Shown piece by piece: positions 3,780-50,202 of a stretch of DNA of 64,000 bases. The first letter of the stretch is position 1. Each line of letters begins with the position of its first letter. The DNA comes from an uncultured Candidatus Saccharibacteria bacterium (GTDB lineage Bacteria > Patescibacteriota > Saccharimonadia > Saccharimonadales > UBA10212): the NCBI GenBank assembly GCA_964460855.1, contig CAYWQH010000002.1:7506-71505 (forward strand), read 5' to 3'. The notes under the pieces are model-generated. The model was not told where the DNA came from and ran no database searches. It saw only the letters and a list, made by a program, of their open reading frames with translations. Both the position numbers and the translations under genes were made by a program.

Positions 3780-4217
3780 ATGAGTGAACTTAGTAAAATT
3801 ATTGATCAAAAGTTTGAAGTTGGTATGGACTACTACATGTCCGGCAGTGAATCGGTGGTAATGAGCAAAACTCCACTTGGCATTAAATACGAATTACTAG
3901 GCTTGGATAGTTTACAGGCACCCGATAGCAGATGTATTTTGTCCAGGAATTGCTTGGGCAGCCCTTTGCTAAGAGTTAATGGAATAGGCATTATGTCGTG
4001 GGGAGTAGAAATTCCGCGCCTGGAAGGCGATAAAAGATCTTTAGAAGATTTGTCGTTAGAAGCTATATTTGGACATGCGTTCGCCGTAGGCACTTATGAC
4101 GAAAAACTGGAAGTTATAGATATTGGAGGAAGTTTACGCCCTGAGTGGATGAGCATTGACGGTCTGGTATTAGCAATCAGCAATATGAGAGTTGCTAAAA
4201 GAATTCCTTGCCTATAA
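3780..4217 (+). CDS. hypothetical protein (145 aa)
   Basis: A long ORF co-directional with the previous one, with no recognisable motif. Confidence 0.55.
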   Translation: MSELSKIIDQKFEVGMDYYMSGSESVVMSKTPLGIKYELLGLDSLQAPDSRCILSRNCLGSPLLRVNGIGIMSWGVEIPRLEGDKRSLEDLSLEAIFGHAFAVGTYDEKLEVIDIGGSLRPEWMSIDGLVLAISNMRVAKRIPCL

Positions 4218-36108: not shown

Positions 36109-36606
36109 ATGCGCCATAAAGTAGTAGCCGTAGACCCGCCAAAGCTGAGCACTGAACAATGGCAGCTGGCCGGCGTAGTCGGCGTATTACTTGTAAGTTT
36201 CGCACTGTGCCAGGTTTTTTCTTTCCAGCATTTTACCGACAGTTTACAAATTATGGGCCTGAGCGGCACTTCCGGGCTGGGAGTAATGATTATATTAATG
36301 GAGTTATGGGGCGCAGCTTGCTGCTTCCGCTTAAAACTTAGTTCGCTTTTCAGGCTGGTTAGCGCCACGTTTATGGTATTGGTTACCGGACTATGGCTCG
36401 AGATATCGCTGCAAGCCCTGGTTAAAAATAACCCGGTTGAATCATTGGGCTTATGGGGCAGCCTGGTTGGTATTCCGCTGAACTGGCTTACCGTAGCTAT
36501 GCTGGCCGCATTATTCTTAACCAGCGTGCACGTCGGAATATTAGTACATGGAGATATGCGCAAGTTAAAATTAAAGAATAAAGCGGCTAATAAAAGGAGG
36601 AAGTAA
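36109..36606 (+). CDS. hypothetical membrane protein (165 aa, 4 TM)
   Basis: Hydrophobic profile only. I chose it over the antisense ORF at 36039-36563 because of its TM periodicity and its stop abutting sodA. Confidence 0.55.
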   Translation: MRHKVVAVDPPKLSTEQWQLAGVVGVLLVSFALCQVFSFQHFTDSLQIMGLSGTSGLGVMIILMELWGAACCFRLKLSSLFRLVSATFMVLVTGLWLEISLQALVKNNPVESLGLWGSLVGIPLNWLTVAMLAALFLTSVHVGILVHGDMRKLKLKNKAANKRRK

Positions 36607-37202
36607 TGTTTACGTTACCCGAACTTGGTTATGAATATAATGCCCTCGAACCGCATATCGATGCCCAAACCATGGAAATCCATTATTCTAAACATCACGC
36701 TACTTACGTAACTAAGCTAAACGAAGCTTTAGCTAACGCGCCGGATTGGAACAACCAGCCTATTGAGCAATTGTTAACTAATTTAAGCGATGTTCCGGCC
36801 GAACTGCAAAACGCCATTCGAAACAACGGCGGCGGCCACCATAACCACACTTTGTTCTGGGAATCGATTAAACCCGGCGGCAACCAAATGACACCAAAAA
36901 TTACAGCCGCCCTGGAAATTGCTTTTGGTACGGTGGAAGATTTTAAAACGATTTTTACTAATGCCGGTTTAAACCGATTTGGATCCGGCTGGGCCTGGCT
37001 GGTCAAGCATAATGACAATCTGGAGGTTATATCTACCGCCAACCAGGACAGCCCCTTAAGCCAATCGATGACGCCAATATTAGGCTGCGACGTTTGGGAA
37101 CACGCTTATTATCTTAAATACCAAAACCGGCGGCCCGATTATATCGCGGCTTTTTGGAATGTCGTTAACTGGAATATTGTAGAACAAAGGCTTTCCGCGT
37201 AA
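36606..37202 (+). CDS. sodA: Fe/Mn superoxide dismutase
   Basis: LPELGYEYNALEPHID...HHSKHH...GGGHHNH...DVWEHAYY is the canonical Fe/Mn-SOD pattern. Confidence 0.95.
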   Translation: MFTLPELGYEYNALEPHIDAQTMEIHYSKHHATYVTKLNEALANAPDWNNQPIEQLLTNLSDVPAELQNAIRNNGGGHHNHTLFWESIKPGGNQMTPKITAALEIAFGTVEDFKTIFTNAGLNRFGSGWAWLVKHNDNLEVISTANQDSPLSQSMTPILGCDVWEHAYYLKYQNRRPDYIAAFWNVVNWNIVEQRLSA

Positions 37203-37357
37203 TCAAGCCCAACTTGATCCACGTTATATAATAATATTGCGCCAAGGAATACTGTCTAGCACGGAACGTCACCATCTAGACGGCGGTTGAGGCCCCGGTA
37301 TAGTCGCATCCAAATATTGGGGAATCCCGGGTATCGCCCTGTTCCGAATAGCGTGGT

Positions 37358-37439
37358 TTAACTGAGCTTTTGGTAAAGCATTTCACTGAGACGGGGGGCG
37401 TCACTGTGAAAAGAGTAGGTTCGATTCCTGCCAGTTGAC
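37358..37439 (+). ncRNA. tRNA-like element lacking an anticodon loop and lacking CCA
   Basis: The acceptor pairs TTAACTG/CAGTTGA over 7 bp (one G-U). The D arm is GCTTT-TGGT-AAAGC and the T arm is GTAGG-TTCGATT-CCTGC. The anticodon and variable region is replaced by a 12-bp hairpin (2 mismatches) capped by GGGGG. Confidence 0.5.
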
Positions 37440-37535
37440 TTAGCGGGCACGCCACGTTGGGATCTGCCTTGAGGGGTAGGTTGAAGCCCAATGCCCGCTA
37501 TAGTAGGGCTGCCGCCAAAACGGCACCCTACACCC

Positions 37536-37575
37536 GGCCTGGATTCCTTCGGGGGTCCAGGCCATTTACTTTTTA
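37536..37575 (+). terminator. intrinsic terminator ending ORF-free transcript 1
   Basis: GGCCTGGA/TCCAGGCC form an 8-bp stem with an inner CC-TTCG-GG, followed by ATTTACTTTTT. Confidence 0.65.
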
Positions 37576-37598
37576 GCCTAATAATTATATAATTAGTA

Positions 37599-37836
37599 TA
37601 TACGAGCCGGGTTTGGGATTCGTATCCGCTGCGCGGATACTTCAGCCAGGCTGGCGGCCACCGAGCGGGGAGCCCGTGGCCGTAGAGTCCCCTGGGGCGC
37701 CCGGAACGTATAGAAACGGTAGTATGGCGCAAGCGCCGTGCAAGTATCGCGGGTAGCCCGCCATACCCGTTTCAAAGCGGAGGTAACACTCTGCTGGACC
37801 CGTGCATCTTCGGATGCACGGGTCCTAATTCTTTTA
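37599..37836 (+). ncRNA. unclassified structured RNA candidate (about 235 nt) with its own terminator
   Basis: It follows an AT-rich TATAAT/TATATA spacer. Long-range helices pair 37599-37611 with 37700-37712 and 37714-37727 with 37761-37772. Nested GC hairpins are present. A 13-bp stem with a UUCG loop (37796-37825) plus TAATTCTTTT ends it. Confidence 0.4.
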
Positions 37837-38484
37837 TGAGCCTAAAATATTTACGGCGCGGGCGGCGACCAGGCCGATTGTTAGTAAAGATACGATTGCC
37901 TGGGTACCCATTAGCATCTTAGTTATATGGGTCAGCGGCAGGGTATCGGTGGGGCTGAAAGCGGTGGCATTTGTCATGGAAACGTATTGATAGTCAAAAA
38001 AGGTCGGTTTCCATTTGTTATCTTCGGGCCGGCCGGATACGAATTGCGGAAACTGGAAATGTTTTAAAGCCAGCTTGTTATGAAAGCCGGTGAGTCCGGG
38101 GCTGTCAATTTCCCAATACCATAATCCAAACACAATAATATTTGTAAGAAAAATCGCCAGTGCCGCGCCGATTAATTGGCGGCCCGGTACGGTTGAGCCG
38201 TGGACTAAGGCCCAAATTACTTTATTAAGCGAAGCTATATTAGCCAGCGAAATTAAAAATATTAGAGCCAGGGCAATGCCGCGGTTGATGCTGCCGGTAT
38301 TTAAATGCCGCCGGGGCGCGGTTATTATAACTGCCAGCAATAAGACCAATTCAATTCCGGCAAATAAATATTGCGGCCCGGCAGCCAGGCCGGGGTTTAA
38401 CGTAGCCTGCAAACTAATGGCGATCGCTAAGGCGATCTCGGCGTGCAGCAGTTCTTTTTTGGTTATTTCGGTTCCCAGGCTCAT
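37834..38484 (-). CDS. DUF1345-family membrane protein
   Basis: The polytopic protein has a WYWEIDSPG...FFDYQYVSMTNATAFSPTD region typical of DUF1345. Confidence 0.75.
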   Translation of the reverse strand: MSLGTEITKKELLHAEIALAIAISLQATLNPGLAAGPQYLFAGIELVLLLAVIITAPRRHLNTGSINRGIALALIFLISLANIASLNKVIWALVHGSTVPGRQLIGAALAIFLTNIIVFGLWYWEIDSPGLTGFHNKLALKHFQFPQFVSGRPEDNKWKPTFFDYQYVSMTNATAFSPTDTLPLTHITKMLMGTQAIVSLLTIGLVAARAVNILGS

Positions 38485-39254: not shown

Positions 39255-39329
39255 TGGGATGTGGCCAAGTGGTAAGGCGCCTGACTCTGGATCAGGAGAT
39301 CGTAGGTTCAAATCCTACCATCCCAGCCA
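39255..39329 (+). tRNA. tRNA-Gln (anticodon CTG), CCA encoded
   Basis: Acceptor TGGGATG/CATCCCA, anticodon arm CCTGA-CTCTGGA-TCAGG and T arm GTAGG-TTCAAAT-CCTAC are present. Confidence 0.9.
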
Positions 39330-47113: not shown

Positions 47114-48271
47114 ATGGTGAGCAGCAGCGATAAGCGTATTTTACCTATCGACCTGGTTCGCGGTTTTTTGCTTTTTGTAATTATTGTTGACCACGTTGAA
47201 TTTTTCCCCAGCCTTTACGACCTGGTAACCGGCCGCGGCAGAATGTATGTTTCGGCGGCCGAAGGATTTTTCCTGACGTCCGGCTTTATAGTCGGCTACA
47301 TTTACCGCAAGCGTTTAAGTAACGGCCTGGCATATGTGTGCAAAAAAATCTGGTCGCGGGCCGCCAAGTTTTATTTGTTATCGGTAGGCCTGACCCTAAT
47401 GTTTACCTACTGGGCTTTAAAATCGCACCATCCAGGCATTAAATATGGCTTGCCGCCCAACCCGGACTGGCACCACATCATCAGCCAAACACTGACCTTG
47501 CAATATTCGTTTGGCTGGGCTGATTTTTTGCCGCGTTACGCGGTGTTTATGGCGATCGCGCCGCTGGCGGTATTTTTACTTTATAAAAGGTTATGGTGGG
47601 CGGTGCTGGCCCTAAGCGTGAGCGCTTGGTTATTACGCGACCAGAATTTCTTTTTATCCTGGCAGATTGTTTTTTTCCCGGGGATAGTCATAGGCTGGCA
47701 TTGGGACGCCATTATCAACTACTTAAGGCAGCTGAGCCATAGCGTAAAACGCCGCCTGACAATAACTCTGTTAACTACGGCATTTGTCACATTGGCGCTT
47801 AGTTACGCCAGTGTTTATTTCCTGACATTGCTTAACCAGAACCAGCCAAAACTTCCCGTCTGGCTGATGCACTTTACGCTGCACTGGAACGCTTTTAATG
47901 ACAAATTGTGGGTATACAGCCAAAAATGGACACTTGGCCCCCTACGGCTGGCATTCTTCGCCTCATGGTTTGCCGCTACAATGTTGCTTGTCAACCGCCT
48001 GCAAAAGCAAATAAATTACTATACTAAAGGCTTCTTGGCCCTGCTGGGCCGCAATAGCTTGTTTGTTTATGTCCTGCACGCCATTGTGATATTCGCGATA
48101 AAAATGGTGGCACCCACTACTACCGGTTTAATGCTGGGCTTCGCCATTACCAGCGCCGCGCTTTTGTCCGTACTGACCATTACAGCAACATACGTCCAAT
48201 GGAAAAAACGGCCGGTGGATACCACCATTGGTACGTGGGTGCGCGATTTATTCAGCCGCGAAACGAGCTAA
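47114..48271 (+). CDS. OpgC/acyltransferase-3-like polytopic membrane protein
   Basis: RILPIDLVRGFLLFVIIVDH is typical of OpgC and acyltransferase_3 N-termini, and the protein has about 10 TM helices. Confidence 0.55.
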   Translation: MVSSSDKRILPIDLVRGFLLFVIIVDHVEFFPSLYDLVTGRGRMYVSAAEGFFLTSGFIVGYIYRKRLSNGLAYVCKKIWSRAAKFYLLSVGLTLMFTYWALKSHHPGIKYGLPPNPDWHHIISQTLTLQYSFGWADFLPRYAVFMAIAPLAVFLLYKRLWWAVLALSVSAWLLRDQNFFLSWQIVFFPGIVIGWHWDAIINYLRQLSHSVKRRLTITLLTTAFVTLALSYASVYFLTLLNQNQPKLPVWLMHFTLHWNAFNDKLWVYSQKWTLGPLRLAFFASWFAATMLLVNRLQKQINYYTKGFLALLGRNSLFVYVLHAIVIFAIKMVAPTTTGLMLGFAITSAALLSVLTITATYVQWKKRPVDTTIGTWVRDLFSRETS

Positions 48272-48422
48272 ATATCGACTAAGCTTAAGCCAATTTTAAG
48301 CAATAATTACTTAAATAATATTGGCCAAAAGTTACTGTAATATTTTTCATAGTAAAAGCATTACGCTTTTGGGTTAATACAGGTACAAACGTAAGCAATA
48401 AGTCACTTTATTAGGAGGGGAC

Positions 48423-48557
48423 ATGTCAACGCAATATAAACAATTTGATTGGAAGCCGATTTTTGAGCGCCGGTTTACGATTTCGGAAATTCCCAAACCA
48501 AAGAACTTACAGGGACTGAGCCTGGATACCGAACATAGCGACGACAACGACGTATAA
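48423..48557 (+). CDS. hypothetical micro-protein (44 aa)
   Basis: AGGAGGGG lies 5 nt upstream of the ATG, and a strong terminator follows. Confidence 0.4.
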   Translation: MSTQYKQFDWKPIFERRFTISEIPKPKNLQGLSLDTEHSDDNDV

Positions 48558-48577
48558 TATTATTACTTCTGACATTT

Positions 48578-48610
48578 AAAACGCTCCCGTGCCAGGGGGC
48601 GTTTTTAGTT
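48578..48610 (+). terminator. intrinsic terminator
   Basis: ACGCTCCC/GGGGGCGT form the stem, followed by TTTTT. Confidence 0.7.
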
Positions 48611-48690
48611 TAAGCATTTTGTAAGAATTCTTATAGTTGAAAAGGCATATTGGTACTTATACTTTAGGGGCAAACTTAGAGGGGAGTCTA

Positions 48691-48807
48691 ATGAGCACCA
48701 GTTATAACGATATAGGCGCCAGCGCCGTTAACTGCAGCGACATTTTGGTACCGAGGGCCCGGGGCGACGAAGTAACCCATAGTGGCCATACTGTTTTTGA
48801 CCGTTAA
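48691..48807 (+). CDS. hypothetical micro-protein (38 aa)
   Basis: GAGGGGAG lies upstream of the ATG. The ORF reads MSTSYNDIGASAVNCSD... Confidence 0.3.
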   Translation: MSTSYNDIGASAVNCSDILVPRARGDEVTHSGHTVFDR

Positions 48808-48862
48808 TTTTTAAATCGATATAAACAACTAAGCAGTTGGGTTTTTGTAGTTGGAGTTATAT

Positions 48863-49054
48863 ATGAATAAGTATGGACCGAAAGCCAGGCGGGAAATTAG
48901 CCGCACCATGCAGCAATTTGCTAAAGGCGAGTTGCGCAGCGGCCCGGACCGCCGCAAAGTTAAAAACTATAAGCAAGCCGTAGCAATTGGTATTTCTCGG
49001 GCCCGCAATAAGCGTTATAAAGTTCCGGGCGGGCCAGCTGAAACCGAATCATAA
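48863..49054 (+). CDS. small basic protein, DUF6496-like (63 aa)
   Basis: GPKARREISRTMQQFAKGELRSG...KQAVAIGISRARNK resembles the family I recall as DUF6496. I prefer the ATG at 48863. Confidence 0.55.
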   Translation: MNKYGPKARREISRTMQQFAKGELRSGPDRRKVKNYKQAVAIGISRARNKRYKVPGGPAETES

Positions 49055-49056
49055 AT

Positions 49057-49091
49057 AAAAATGGCCGCCATATTTAAATGGCGGCCATTTA
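49057..49091. terminator. bidirectional terminator between convergent small genes
   Basis: AAAATGGCCGCCA/TGGCGGCCATTTT is a perfect stem flanked by an A tract and a T tract. Confidence 0.7.
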
Positions 49092-49118
49092 TGACTAAAA
49101 GCCATAAATATTTTGGTT

Positions 49119-49271
49119 TTACATATCCAGATCGAGCTCTTTGCCCCTATTGGTCCGGCGTAGCTTTTCCACTTTCATGGCGTATTTGCTGGCCAGCCGG
49201 TCGTAGAGGTCTTCTAACTCCTGTTGGCTGATATCCCTAAAACTATAGTTCATATTAATTTTTTTGCCCAT
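49119..49271 (-). CDS. hypothetical micro-protein (50 aa)
   Basis: GGGAG lies upstream of the ATG. The ORF reads MGKKINMNYSFRDISQQELEDLYDRLASKYAMKVEKLRRTNRGKELDLDM. Confidence 0.4.
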   Translation of the reverse strand: MGKKINMNYSFRDISQQELEDLYDRLASKYAMKVEKLRRTNRGKELDLDM

Positions 49272-49398
49272 TACCTGCTCCCTAACTTAGCAATTCCTAC
49301 TGTAGCTTAAGCGTGATATCAACAACTGTAAGAAAAATTACATTAAACAAAGAAGGCGCTTAAAATAAAGCGCCTTCAGCATTAAAGATAAGCAAAAG

Positions 49399-49506
49399 TT
49401 ATTTATTGTGCTTCTTGCCGGTACCCTTTTTCTTCTCGCCGCCTAAGCGGCCAGCGCGGGCGTGGCCATCGCTATCGCCATGCCAACCTCGTCCTTGTCC
49501 TGCCAT
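49399..49506 (-). CDS. KGG-repeat general stress protein-like micro-protein (35 aa)
   Basis: AAGGAGGAG RBS is present. MAGQGRGWHGDSDGHARAGRLGGEKKKGTGKKHNK resembles the stress-induced KGG motif (compare YciG). Confidence 0.55.
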   Translation of the reverse strand: MAGQGRGWHGDSDGHARAGRLGGEKKKGTGKKHNK

Positions 49507-49676
49507 GCTACTCCTCCTTAAAATTAATTGGCACGTATTACTTTAAAAGCAAAATTAATAGCTTACTATTAATTATCTTACTTAGCATTACAGTTTTCCA
49601 CGGCGAACCGTAAGAATTTTAATAGTGGCTTCCAAGCAATAAGCTTATGCTATTCGTGTAATAAGGGAGATGGGCA

Positions 49677-49766
49677 ATGGATTATGAGCTTACCGAATCC
49701 AAGCAGTGGGAGCAGCACCTGGAGTTTAAGATCCTCCAAGACGGCATTAGCGACAGAGACCTTTAA
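49677..49766 (+). CDS. possible 29-aa micro-protein
   Basis: AAGGGAGA lies upstream of the ATG. There is no other support. Confidence 0.25.
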   Translation: MDYELTESKQWEQHLEFKILQDGISDRDL

Positions 49767-49841
49767 ATTGTAACTTTTCTTACTGCTTAGGTAAGGCAAT
49801 TCAAAGTACTATAGCAAAGTAAAAATAAGGAGTAAGACCAT

Positions 49842-50111
49842 ATGTTAAATATCATCGGTTGGATAATTTTAGGAGCCCTAGCTGGTTGGATAGCTTCGAT
49901 AATTATGGGAACCAATGAAGAGCAGGGCGGAATTGCTAATATAATTGTCGGTATTGTCGGCGCTCTGCTCGGCGGTATCATCAGCAACGCCTTGGGCGGG
50001 CCTGGTATATCCGGATTTAACCTTTCAAGCTTAATAGTAGCGATCTTGGGATCGGTATTACTGTTGTTCGTAGTGAATCTGTTTCGCCGCCGCCCGGCAA
50101 TTAACGGCTAG
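49842..50111 (+). CDS. GlsB/YeaQ/YmgE (transglycosylase-associated) stress membrane protein
   Basis: MLNIIGWIILGALAGWIASIIMG...GIIANIIVGIVGALLGG is the family signature. Confidence 0.85.
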   Translation: MLNIIGWIILGALAGWIASIIMGTNEEQGGIANIIVGIVGALLGGIISNALGGPGISGFNLSSLIVAILGSVLLLFVVNLFRRRPAING

Positions 50112-50133
50112 TTAACACTAGCCGCAATGCTTT

Positions 50134-50160
50134 AAGCGCCCGCATTACGCGGGCGTTTTT
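50134..50160 (+). terminator. intrinsic terminator
   Basis: CGCCCGC/GCGGGCG form the stem, followed by TTTTT. Confidence 0.7.
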
Positions 50161-50202
50161 ATTAGGCTTGATATTTAGGAAAACTAAATATAAAATTGAT
50201 TT

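Follow-up and report, generated by a model that had tools for sequence, protein, structure and literature searches.

The stretch of DNA analyzed here (the window) covers 64,000 nucleotides (nt) of contig CAYWQH010000002.1 (assembly GCA_964460855.1), from an uncultured Candidatus Saccharibacteria bacterium. It contains, at 37358-37439 on the + strand, an 82-nt element that has the cloverleaf shape of a tRNA and a capped helix where a tRNA has its anticodon arm. On its two sides lie the Fe/Mn superoxide dismutase gene sod (36606-37202, +) and a convergent gene for a DUF1345-like membrane protein, which leave between them a gap of 630 nt (37203-37833). Upstream of sod lie trmD and a 165-amino-acid (aa) open reading frame (ORF); the DUF1345-like gene is followed by a gene for a CAP-domain protein (both on the - strand) and then by tRNA-Gln(CTG) at 39255. 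The best named homologues of the sod and DUF1345-like products belong to Saccharimonadales or Saccharibacteria, the wider region holds housekeeping genes (e.g., those for LeuRS, RNase III, and a Mur ligase), and it shows no signs of a prophage around the element.

Fold and tRNA likeness of the element

The cloverleaf is the minimum-free-energy (MFE) fold of 37358-37439 (-26.0 kcal/mol, z = -2.1, 9/200 shuffles as good). Its four arms read UUAACUG-A-GCUUUUGGUAAAGC-A-UUUCACUGAGACG-GGGGG-CGUCACUGUGAAA-AGA-GUAGG-UUCGAUU-CCUGC-CAGUUGA-C, followed by UUAG (Table 1). The acceptor, D, and T arms proposed in a preliminary description of this DNA hold both in the sequence and in the MFE fold, and the interrupted 12-bp hairpin that it placed at 37382-37410 is essentially the 13-position, GGGGG-capped hairpin listed in Table 1, of which the window holds no second copy. 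The stems are complete (7/7 acceptor, 5/5 D, and 5/5 T pairs), and the departures from tRNA are confined to unpaired or tertiary positions and to wobble pairs. Even the insert in the anticodon loop lengthens the stem instead of breaking it. The D arm region is noncanonical in that one nucleotide rather than two separates it from the acceptor stem and U8 and A14 are absent, G18 and G19 being present. The 3:70 pair is A-U and not G.U. All five genuine tRNA genes in the window encode CCA, so that the element, whose acceptor is followed by CUUA as previously described, is the only one of six tRNA-like genes without it; two C>U transitions would be enough to derive its UUA trailer from CCA.

Table 1. 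Positions of the parts of the element and of neighboring candidate features in the window
Position	Strand	Feature	Basis or remark
37227-37232	+	TATAAT hexamer, candidate -10	read from sequence; 31% G+C stretch just past the sod stop
37358-37364	+	acceptor stem, 5' strand UUAACUG	7/7 pairs with 37432-37438, one U.G (2:71); MFE fold, Rfam tRNA alignment
37365	+	connector, single A in place of tRNA U8 and N9	deletion here in Rfam alignment
37366-37379	+	D arm GCUUU-UGGU-AAAGC, or 4-bp stem with loop UUGGUA	Rfam alignment, MFE fold, ARAGORN -i
37381-37411	+	13-position hairpin replacing the anticodon arm, with 11 pairs, mismatches U.U and A.A, and a GGGGG loop	MFE fold
37412-37414	+	variable region AGA, 3 nt	Rfam alignment
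37415-37431	+	T arm GUAGG-UUCGAUU-CCUGC; U50.G64 wobble, U54 U55 C56 G57 A58, G53-C61	Rfam alignment, MFE fold
37432-37439	+	acceptor stem, 3' strand CAGUUGA, and discriminator C (C37439)	sequence, Rfam alignment, MFE fold
37440-37442	+	UUA at the CCA position of the five tRNA genes of the window	sequence
37441-37500, 37503-37531	+	two stable hairpins 3' of the element, same candidate transcript	fold
37536-37575	+	intrinsic terminator, 12-bp stem, UUCG loop, T-rich tail	terminator scan
37565-37835	+	second candidate RNA gene	promoter TTTACT-17-TATAAT at 37565-37593 (10/12, sigma-70-like), body ~37600-37835, terminator
37796-37825	+	second terminator, 13-bp	abuts the stop codon of the convergent DUF1345-like gene

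The Rfam tRNA model (RF00005) aligns with the element end to end (model positions 1-71), with a 16-nt insertion in the anticodon loop. The score, 28.6 bits, falls 0.4 below the gathering score of 29, and the element is accordingly missing from a scan at gathering thresholds; the E-value is 9e-4 for a 751-nt region and 0.079 for the whole window, in both cases against all 4227 families. ARAGORN in its default mode (tRNA and tmRNA) makes no call on the element. With the -i option, still at default threshold, it reports a 68-nt "tRNA-Leu(GAG)" in which 14 nt, GGGGGGCGTCACTG, are inserted after loop position 38 and before the stem resumes with its 3' strand; the anticodon arm of this call is made of the first 5 bp of the hairpin and the loop CUGAGAC, the "intron" being 37394-37407. 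The tRNA likeness of the element is therefore real rather than a product of chance, on the strength of the full-length Rfam alignment and the ARAGORN -i call.

A functional tRNA is another matter. The acceptor stem, a UUCRA T loop, and G18 G19 in the D loop are all there. A 7-nt anticodon loop with U33 appears only after 14 nt are removed, and a score above the gathering threshold, the U8, N9, and A14 of the tRNA core together with a 4- to 5-nt variable region, and an encoded CCA are all missing. Because it lacks a 7-nt anticodon loop, the element cannot decode; it is not a tRNA gene, and annotating it as tRNA-Leu is unwarranted.

Other known classes fit no better. The element is not tmRNA (transfer-messenger RNA)-like: it lacks the G3:U70 pair, as the preliminary description held, and there is no CCA, no default ARAGORN call, and no Rfam tmRNA match on it. 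The one call that ARAGORN makes at a lowered threshold (-ps80), a "permuted tmRNA" whose tag is unidentified, falls on the opposite strand. The tRNA-like module of the bacterial Y RNA YrlA is circularly permuted, ending in the equivalent of the anticodon stem, and is linked to an Rsr/Ro gene. The arms of the element stand in normal tRNA order, Rfam returned no Y RNA or YrlA match at E <= 10, and no Pfam-identifiable Ro/Rsr gene was present among the 16 window ORFs scanned (four of the 16 had no Pfam match). For an intron-containing tRNA, the 14-nt insert at 38/39 lies within a continuous helix with two 1x1 mismatches and no 3-nt bulges, and the group I intron models found nothing in the Rfam scan. 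Across 37150-37900, no Rfam family other than tRNA reaches E < 0.02, and none of the weaker matches overlaps the element. As for tRNA-like processing elements of the t-element or mascRNA type, a class defined by function and not by homology, the cloverleaf fold and the T arm are there, a terminator is predicted downstream and none between the sod stop and 37536, and the enclosing longer transcript is a candidate. Among the three options that had been raised (a tRNA mimic, a decayed tRNA, or a domain of an unrecognized RNA), relatedness to tRNA thus stands on the Rfam and ARAGORN -i results, a domain of another Rfam family drops out for want of a match, and mimic and decayed tRNA both stay in contention.

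A lineage-specific insert and phage relatives of the element

We compared the sod and DUF1345-like neighborhoods of 10 relatives, the closest available having sod products 66 to 72% identical and DUF1345-like proteins 57 to 69% identical to those of the window. The 630-nt insert is absent from all of the related Saccharibacteria loci examined. In one (L007), tRNA-Gln directly follows sod; in L009, L011, L012, and L139, sod and the DUF1345 gene are convergent and 0 to 235 nt apart, L012 having a Na/Ca-exchanger gene between them. The relatives' gaps hold only tRNA-Gln(CTG) or small ORFs, with no other tRNA-like sequence. Since these loci lack the block, we regard it, from synteny, as an insertion specific to this lineage; conservation in related genomes, the lack of which the preliminary description had counted as fatal to its proposal, fails at this level. 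An assembly artifact is excluded because 661 nt of the locus are identical (100%) in two independent Logan assemblies (SRR9179562 and SRR9179563), from which no covariation is available. A 124-aa reverse-strand ORF, used as a proxy for genes miscalled over the RNA in relatives, had no match.

Scans of genomes and metagenomes used exact patterns. The D arm combined with the T loop gave 0 matches and then 8 class II phage tRNAs in viral contigs, 6 chance matches in JGI metagenomes, and 0 in GTDB genomes, so that no tRNA or tRNA-like sequence with the exact D arm of the element was found in the JGI or GTDB sets. The T loop combined with the acceptor 3' strand matched 85 times in GTDB genomes, about the number expected by chance, mostly in coding sequence and never in Saccharibacteria; the only one with any resemblance to the element is a tRNA-like sequence located among the arrayed tRNA genes of a Chryseobacterium, described below. 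A skeleton pattern including the GGGGG loop retrieved only tRNA-Leu-type genes from viral contigs, blastn of the whole 638-nt insert against phages and plasmids returned nothing at E <= 0.01, and k-mers of the neighboring RNAs had no match in viral contigs.

A parent tRNA was sought as well. The five window tRNAs are not close, none of ~100 phage tRNAs is favored, and GTDB holds no sequence with the same D arm and T loop within 20 to 46 nt of each other. A covariance model built from the element alone scores Gly, Asn, Gln, Ala, and Pro tRNAs alike, at 19 to 23 bits. Descent from the nearby tRNA-Gln was rejected: four acceptor pairs differ on both sides, and the element model scores several tRNA types alike. 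The other outcome that would have told against the original proposal, a pseudogenized copy of a tRNA found elsewhere, thus did not materialize in the window, among the phage tRNAs, or in the GTDB patterns.

The only detectable relatives are unannotated tRNA-like elements of phages, in one uncultured phage contig and in phages of the Lactobacillus casei group. The former, IMG/VR contig IMGVR_UViG_3300049796_000012 (L141), was found with the T-loop/acceptor pattern; it has 57% G+C, its products include a UDG-like protein and a DNA polymerase of family A, and its element lies at 3944-4008 (-). This reads UCAACUG-A-GCAU[..GGAGC-UGGA-GCUCC..]AUGC-GU, then GUAGGUUCGAAUCCUGC, i.e., the T arm GUAGG-UUCGAAU-CCUGC, and then CAGUUGA-A-CUA, and has a fold z of -3.0. 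Its acceptor is that of the window element except for C-G instead of U.G at 2:71, the same single-A connector followed by GC leads into a D-stem base whose 12:23 pair is flipped from U-A to A-U, and the T stem is the same, including the U50.G64 wobble. It has no CCA (CUA instead), no separate anticodon arm, and a different center. The longest block common to the two is a 24-nt segment from the T arm to the 3' end, 23/24 identical.

The second group emerged from short-query blastn of GenBank phages and comprises the L. casei-group phages iLp84, PLE3, J-1, PL-1, iLp1308, MLC-A, and CL1. Their element reads GCAACUG-A-(38 nt)-G(U/C)AGG-UUCGACU-CCUGC-CAGUUGC-A-UUG (e.g., KR905069, 36675-36744), with the T-arm segment after G(U/C) being AGGUUCGACUCCUGC, then CAGUUGC-A-UUG. 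The pair 1:72 covaries, G-C in these phages against U-A in the window element. Within the group, one central-stem pair changes from C-G to U-A, a compensatory change, and 50:64 changes from U.G to C-G (C50-G64 in J-1 and CL1), while the T arm of iLp84 keeps the stem and the U50.G64 wobble of the window element. The element is unannotated or lies just 3' of, with an overlap of a few bases, a short "hypothetical protein" that mostly covers a first tRNA-like element; in iLp84 it lies ~160 nt upstream of a phage tRNA-Ile.

The window element, L141, and iLp84/J-1 all have an A as the first base past the 5' strand of the acceptor. When five sequences of the 12-bp acceptor/T minihelix are compared, 60/60 cells pair, and two pairs change on both sides. 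The element-only covariance model gives the phage elements 27 to 31 bits, although they lack the center of the element, versus at most 23 bits for the ~100 ordinary tRNAs. We provisionally define an "AACUG-minihelix" group by A3-U70, A4-U69, C5-G68, U6-A67, and G7-C66, an A immediately past the acceptor 5' strand, a T arm of the form GYAGG-UUCGAnU-CCUGC, and the lack of both CCA and an anticodon loop. The window element belongs to it by these features, a test that is partly circular, as the 3' half of the element itself served to retrieve the members. The phage elements thus share with the window element the acceptor core AACUG/CAGUU, the A that follows, the T arm G(U/C)AGG-UUCGAnU-CCUGC, the absence of CCA and of a 7-nt anticodon loop, and pairing kept through changes at 1:72, 2:71, and 50:64. 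They differ in having three arms, 65 to 70 nt, and unrelated central domains, whereas the window element has four arms with a D arm and a long hairpin; they also differ in discriminator and flanks and are sited among phage genes, some near phage tRNA genes, whereas the window copy is chromosomal. The comparison is suggestive of common descent of the minihelix in the window and phage elements. Because the phage elements are the only detectable relatives of the window element, a horizontal source of the 630-nt insert is probable.

The L. casei-group phages in fact carry two adjacent miniature tRNA-like elements between arpU and the next genes (iLp84 KR905069: L144 1337-1392 and 1455-1524; also L150 and L151). 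Both are 94 to 100% conserved across iLp84, PLE3, J-1, PL-1, and CL1, with the one compensatory C-G to U-A change; the annotation of J-1 places a 49-aa "hypothetical protein" (J1_56) across the first. The Chryseobacterium sequence mentioned above (C. paridis NZ_JAENHK010000005, L041 5823-5894, -) lies inside a nine-tRNA array and is not called by ARAGORN; its acceptor, UCAACUG/CAGUUGA, equals that of L141, and a hand parse gives it an anticodon-like loop without U33.

A proposed processing or stability module weighed against its rivals

We tentatively favor, with somewhat less than even confidence, the reading that the element is a non-decoding, tRNA-derived module, probably acquired horizontally, that acts as a processing element for RNase P and a 3' endonuclease or as a stability element. 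What it has kept, a canonical T arm on which the 7-bp acceptor stacks and a D-loop GG able to dock on the T loop, would give the tRNA shape that processing enzymes take as substrate; what it has lost, the anticodon loop, the encoded CCA, and U8/A14, are needs of decoding and charging. The module would have arrived in this Saccharibacteria lineage inside the 630-nt noncoding insert between sod and the DUF1345-like gene. It would be transcribed on the + strand up to the strong terminator at 37536-37563, fold into an L shape, and be treated as a pre-tRNA. RNase P would cut between U37357 and U37358, a U at -1 being suited to the bacterial enzyme, and RNase Z or another 3' endonuclease would cut after C37439. 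These cuts would release an RNA of ~82 nt and part the upstream sod/leader RNA from a downstream hairpin RNA ending at the terminator. The tRNA body may thus be a processing signal or, alternatively, a stabilizing scaffold or chassis on which the hairpin with its GGGGG cap is presented. Our analysis shows how the element folds, that it is homologous to tRNA, that signals for transcription surround it, that the insertion is lineage specific, and that phages carry relatives of it; expression, the cleavages, and any downstream role are inferred.

Transcription is expected from the layout of the gap. Because no terminator is predicted between the sod stop and 37536, the element would be made as part of the sod 3' region or from the weak -10 at 37227, and read-through from sod is as possible a source of the candidate transcript as a start at that -10. 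The promoter scan omitted the 37227 TATAAT and gave a weaker site at 37277-37304 (9/12).

Precedents exist for such a use of the tRNA shape. Plant mitochondrial t-elements are cis signals for RNase P and RNase Z that set the 5' and 3' ends of mRNAs and can persist as stable small RNAs (PMC1920247). They, and similarly the mammalian mascRNA of MALAT1, resemble the element in being a noncanonical cloverleaf in a longer transcript, with a conserved T arm and without decoding. They differ in belonging to organelles or eukaryotes, in having no sequence relationship to it (the Rfam mascRNA-menRNA model does not match the window element), and in having cleavages mapped experimentally, where those proposed here are inferred only. 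Bacterial RNase P, too, cleaves non-tRNA substrates with tRNA-like features (PMC11143913). Bacillus cereus tRNA-Other, a pseudo-tRNA with a regulatory role, is reported to be a chromosomal, tRNA-derived gene that does not work in translation and affects phenotype (PMC3399842); it resembles the element in its location, its origin, and its lack of a part in translation. The bacterial Y RNA YrlA has a tRNA-like domain that mimics the acceptor/T-arm part (PMC4201824), and tmRNA and YrlA are, like the element, bacterial RNAs that mimic the acceptor/T arm without decoding. A tmRNA, however, requires the G3:U70 pair, a CCA end, and a P2 helix opening into its mRNA-like domain, whereas the element has A-U, no CCA, and a capped helix. 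As for tRNA-Other, it keeps an anticodon stem-loop and flanks a genomic island.

Phages also have annotated objects of this kind. Bacillus phage 0305phi8-36 (NC_009760, 182560-182673) carries annotated "tRNA-like elements," one described as "intron-containing Arg-tRNA, Cove 22.4." Like the window element, this one is low scoring, with an extended anticodon stem that contains an inserted structured segment and with a T arm GCAGG-UUCGAAU-CCUGC. It differs in its poor acceptor pairing, an insert of ~40 nt, and a fold z of 0.03, and it scores only 14 bits with the window-element model. These annotations show that such objects are already known in phages without an assigned function.

Several observations weigh against a selected processing module. 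The candidate -10 at 37227 has no good -35, and the z-score of the cloverleaf is modest. The insert is absent from the relatives' loci, and the patterns used retrieved no copy of the element from JGI metagenomes or GTDB genomes, so conservation in the host lineage is unsupported. The search that led to the phage relatives started from the 3' half of the element itself, and their similarity is therefore partly selected for; their blastn E-values are 0.06 to 0.8 and the T arm is a common tRNA sequence; the phage and window elements amount to only three or four distinct sequences; and neither the discriminator nor the -1 base is conserved among the phage relatives. The U.G wobbles and the UUA would also be expected from the early decay of a tRNA gene.

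That last point belongs to the main rival, an inert, now decaying tRNA pseudogene, native or foreign, inactivated when 14 nt were inserted at the 3' edge of its anticodon loop and its core suffered small deletions, a reading that we think rather unlikely while taking it seriously. The score under the tRNA cutoff and the miss by default ARAGORN suit it, as does the loop CUGAGAC left once 14 nt are taken out, since U33 and a purine at 37 are what a real anticodon loop would show. Two C>U changes would turn CCA into UUA, and a single such change would account for each of the wobbles U2.G71 and U50.G64 in place of a Watson-Crick pair, C>U being the commonest mutational direction; the element is, moreover, absent from all relatives examined and has no homologue found in the host lineage. 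Against this, at least four indels and several substitutions have spared all ~42 stem positions, a pattern that neutral decay would be unlikely to produce. Nor did a parent tRNA turn up in the window, among ~100 phage tRNAs, or in the GTDB pattern scan. The element also sits in a promoter- and terminator-bounded, G+C-rich, structured unit among housekeeping genes, with no mobile-element genes near, and the phage elements keep the acceptor/T minihelix around wholly different centers, which points to selection on the minihelix. On these sequence comparisons, the intact stems together with phage relatives that keep the acceptor/T arm and swap the center make us lean, on thin evidence, toward a selected tRNA-like RNA over a decayed tRNA.

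Three further explanations have far less in their favor. It is improbable that the 3' half, from the T arm to the acceptor, is an attB site or its leftover, i.e., the core used by a phage tyrosine integrase, with the rest incidental. The longest match to L141 is indeed just this 24-nt T-arm-to-3'-end segment (23/24), the 3' part of a tRNA gene is usually what attP and attB have in common for tRNA-targeting integrases, and the region is a lineage-specific insertion. Yet the phage copies have the 5' acceptor strand and connector and are thus whole tRNA-like genes rather than 3' fragments, the iLp84/J-1 element adjoins arpU and a phage tRNA-Ile with no integrase annotated within ~1.5 kb, and there is no integrase, direct repeat, or prophage around the window element. 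It is very improbable that the cloverleaf arose by chance or that it is part of a larger RNA of a known kind (tmRNA, Y RNA/YrlA, RNase P RNA, or a riboswitch): the MFE z of only -2.1 and the score just under the Rfam cutoff would allow it, but the tRNA E-value is 9e-4 even after multiplying by 4227 families, no other Rfam family overlaps the element, and ARAGORN finds no tmRNA at default threshold.

We give the least credence to a working tRNA with an intervening sequence, in which removal of 14 nt yields a 68-nt tRNA with anticodon GAG to which CCA is added posttranscriptionally, as the ARAGORN -i call at default threshold and the U33 and A37 of the residual loop CUGAGAC would have it, for the insert is only 14 nt where bacterial tRNA introns are group I introns of ~200 nt or more, it lacks a bulge-helix-bulge motif in a helix continuous but for two 1x1 mismatches, it falls at 38/39 and not 37/38, the body with its 3-nt variable region and C73 is not Leu-like (bacterial tRNA-Leu has a long variable arm and A73), U8, position 9, and A14 are missing, and the element is the only one of six window tRNA-like genes without CCA and is absent from related genomes.

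As an object, the element is a new instance of something known, a tRNA-like RNA or pseudo-tRNA, here in a bacterium of the Candidate Phyla Radiation (CPR) and with an unusual capped anticodon helix; our literature search found no published description of an equivalent in Saccharibacteria/CPR or in Lactobacillus phages, or of the phage grouping. If it is expressed and processed, it would be a bacterial counterpart of the t-element/mascRNA principle, with the tRNA shape reused as a processing or stability module, in organisms whose noncoding RNAs are almost unexplored. If it is only a pseudogene, the lesson would be that sub-threshold "intron" tRNA matches in bacterial metagenome-assembled genomes (MAGs) are not to be annotated as tRNA-Leu.

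A link of the element to unannotated phage tRNA-like RNAs is possible from the shared minihelix and would point to a class of phage-associated tRNA mimics that tRNA finders and annotations have missed or labeled as pseudo-tRNAs. The bolder proposal, which we regard as distinctly unlikely, is a horizontally mobile family of anticodon-less, CCA-less tRNA mimics in Firmicutes phages, an uncultured phage, and a CPR chromosome, with the minihelix xxAACUG...GYAGGUUCGAnUCCUGCCAGUUxx conserved and the center exchangeable. Were it true, its members could be natural "tRNA scaffolds" displaying different hairpins, or decoys or ligands for an enzyme that reads the acceptor/T arm, for example, a tRNA-targeting defense or counter-defense factor.

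Neighboring candidate RNAs and other observations

The ORF-free stretch around the element, already pointed out in the preliminary description, is borne out by promoter-like sites and two strong intrinsic terminators on the + strand and by the lack of a credible ORF; tblastx detected no decayed coding remnant in 37203-37833 either. Along the gap, G+C content goes from 31% after the sod stop to 56% for the leader and 48% for the element itself, then to 59% over 37440-37575, 17% for the spacer that contains the 10/12 promoter, and 61% over 37600-37835, so that G+C-rich blocks (56 to 61%) alternate with AT-rich promoter-like spacers (17 to 31%). The composition, the promoter and terminators, the stable folds, the lack of ORFs, and the housekeeping surroundings together suggest a setting of RNA genes and not of junk. 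We found no direct or inverted repeats flanking it, no second copy of the element in the window, and no mobile-element genes nearby, which leaves an origin from a repeat or mobile element unsupported.

The leader 5' of the element is not unusually stable (z = -0.7). The 37440-37575 segment folds at -73 kcal/mol (z = -6.5, 0/200 shuffles as good), and its two hairpins (37441-37531) could be a separate small RNA from the same candidate transcript. The second candidate RNA gene is part of the same lineage-specific insert and not of the tRNA-like element. It has a body of ~235 nt with 61% G+C and an MFE z of -7.5, and neither an Rfam match nor a homologue was found for it.

Directly 5' of sod, the ORF without a Pfam match (36109-36606, +; 159 to 165 aa) occurs also in L001, L002, L009, and L012, between trmD and sod where trmD is in view; the other relatives lack it. 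Elsewhere in the window, 48270-50200 has a low G+C content, no ORF of at least 200 aa, and short ORFs of 66 to 89 aa, several of which seem, by eye, to have Shine-Dalgarno-like sequences and hairpin-plus-T-run ends; a sliding MFE scan shows a cluster of strongly structured windows there.

A Planctomycetota MAG (CAZPDM01) contains at least 11 copies, on different contigs (L040, L047, L058, L059, L062, L064, L076, L084, L089, L095, and L106), of a repeat with the conserved 3' end GGGTTCAATTCCTCACAGTTGAA and an upstream part similar in most copies, an interspersed repeat family whose end resembles a T loop and acceptor strand. A nearly identical 77-nt gene with a short variable region is present in Flavobacteriia/Bacteroidales (L035, L055, L079, and L080) and is called tRNA-Tyr(GTA) by ARAGORN in L035; a long variable arm is usual for bacterial tRNA-Tyr. 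Finally, RF04354 (Plastid-ycf2 5' UTR) gave sub-threshold matches of 38 and 32 bits to the reverse complement of ordinary tRNA genes (window 39255-39327, -, and L144 1688-1761, -, respectively); these are false positives of a model that seems to contain antisense tRNA.

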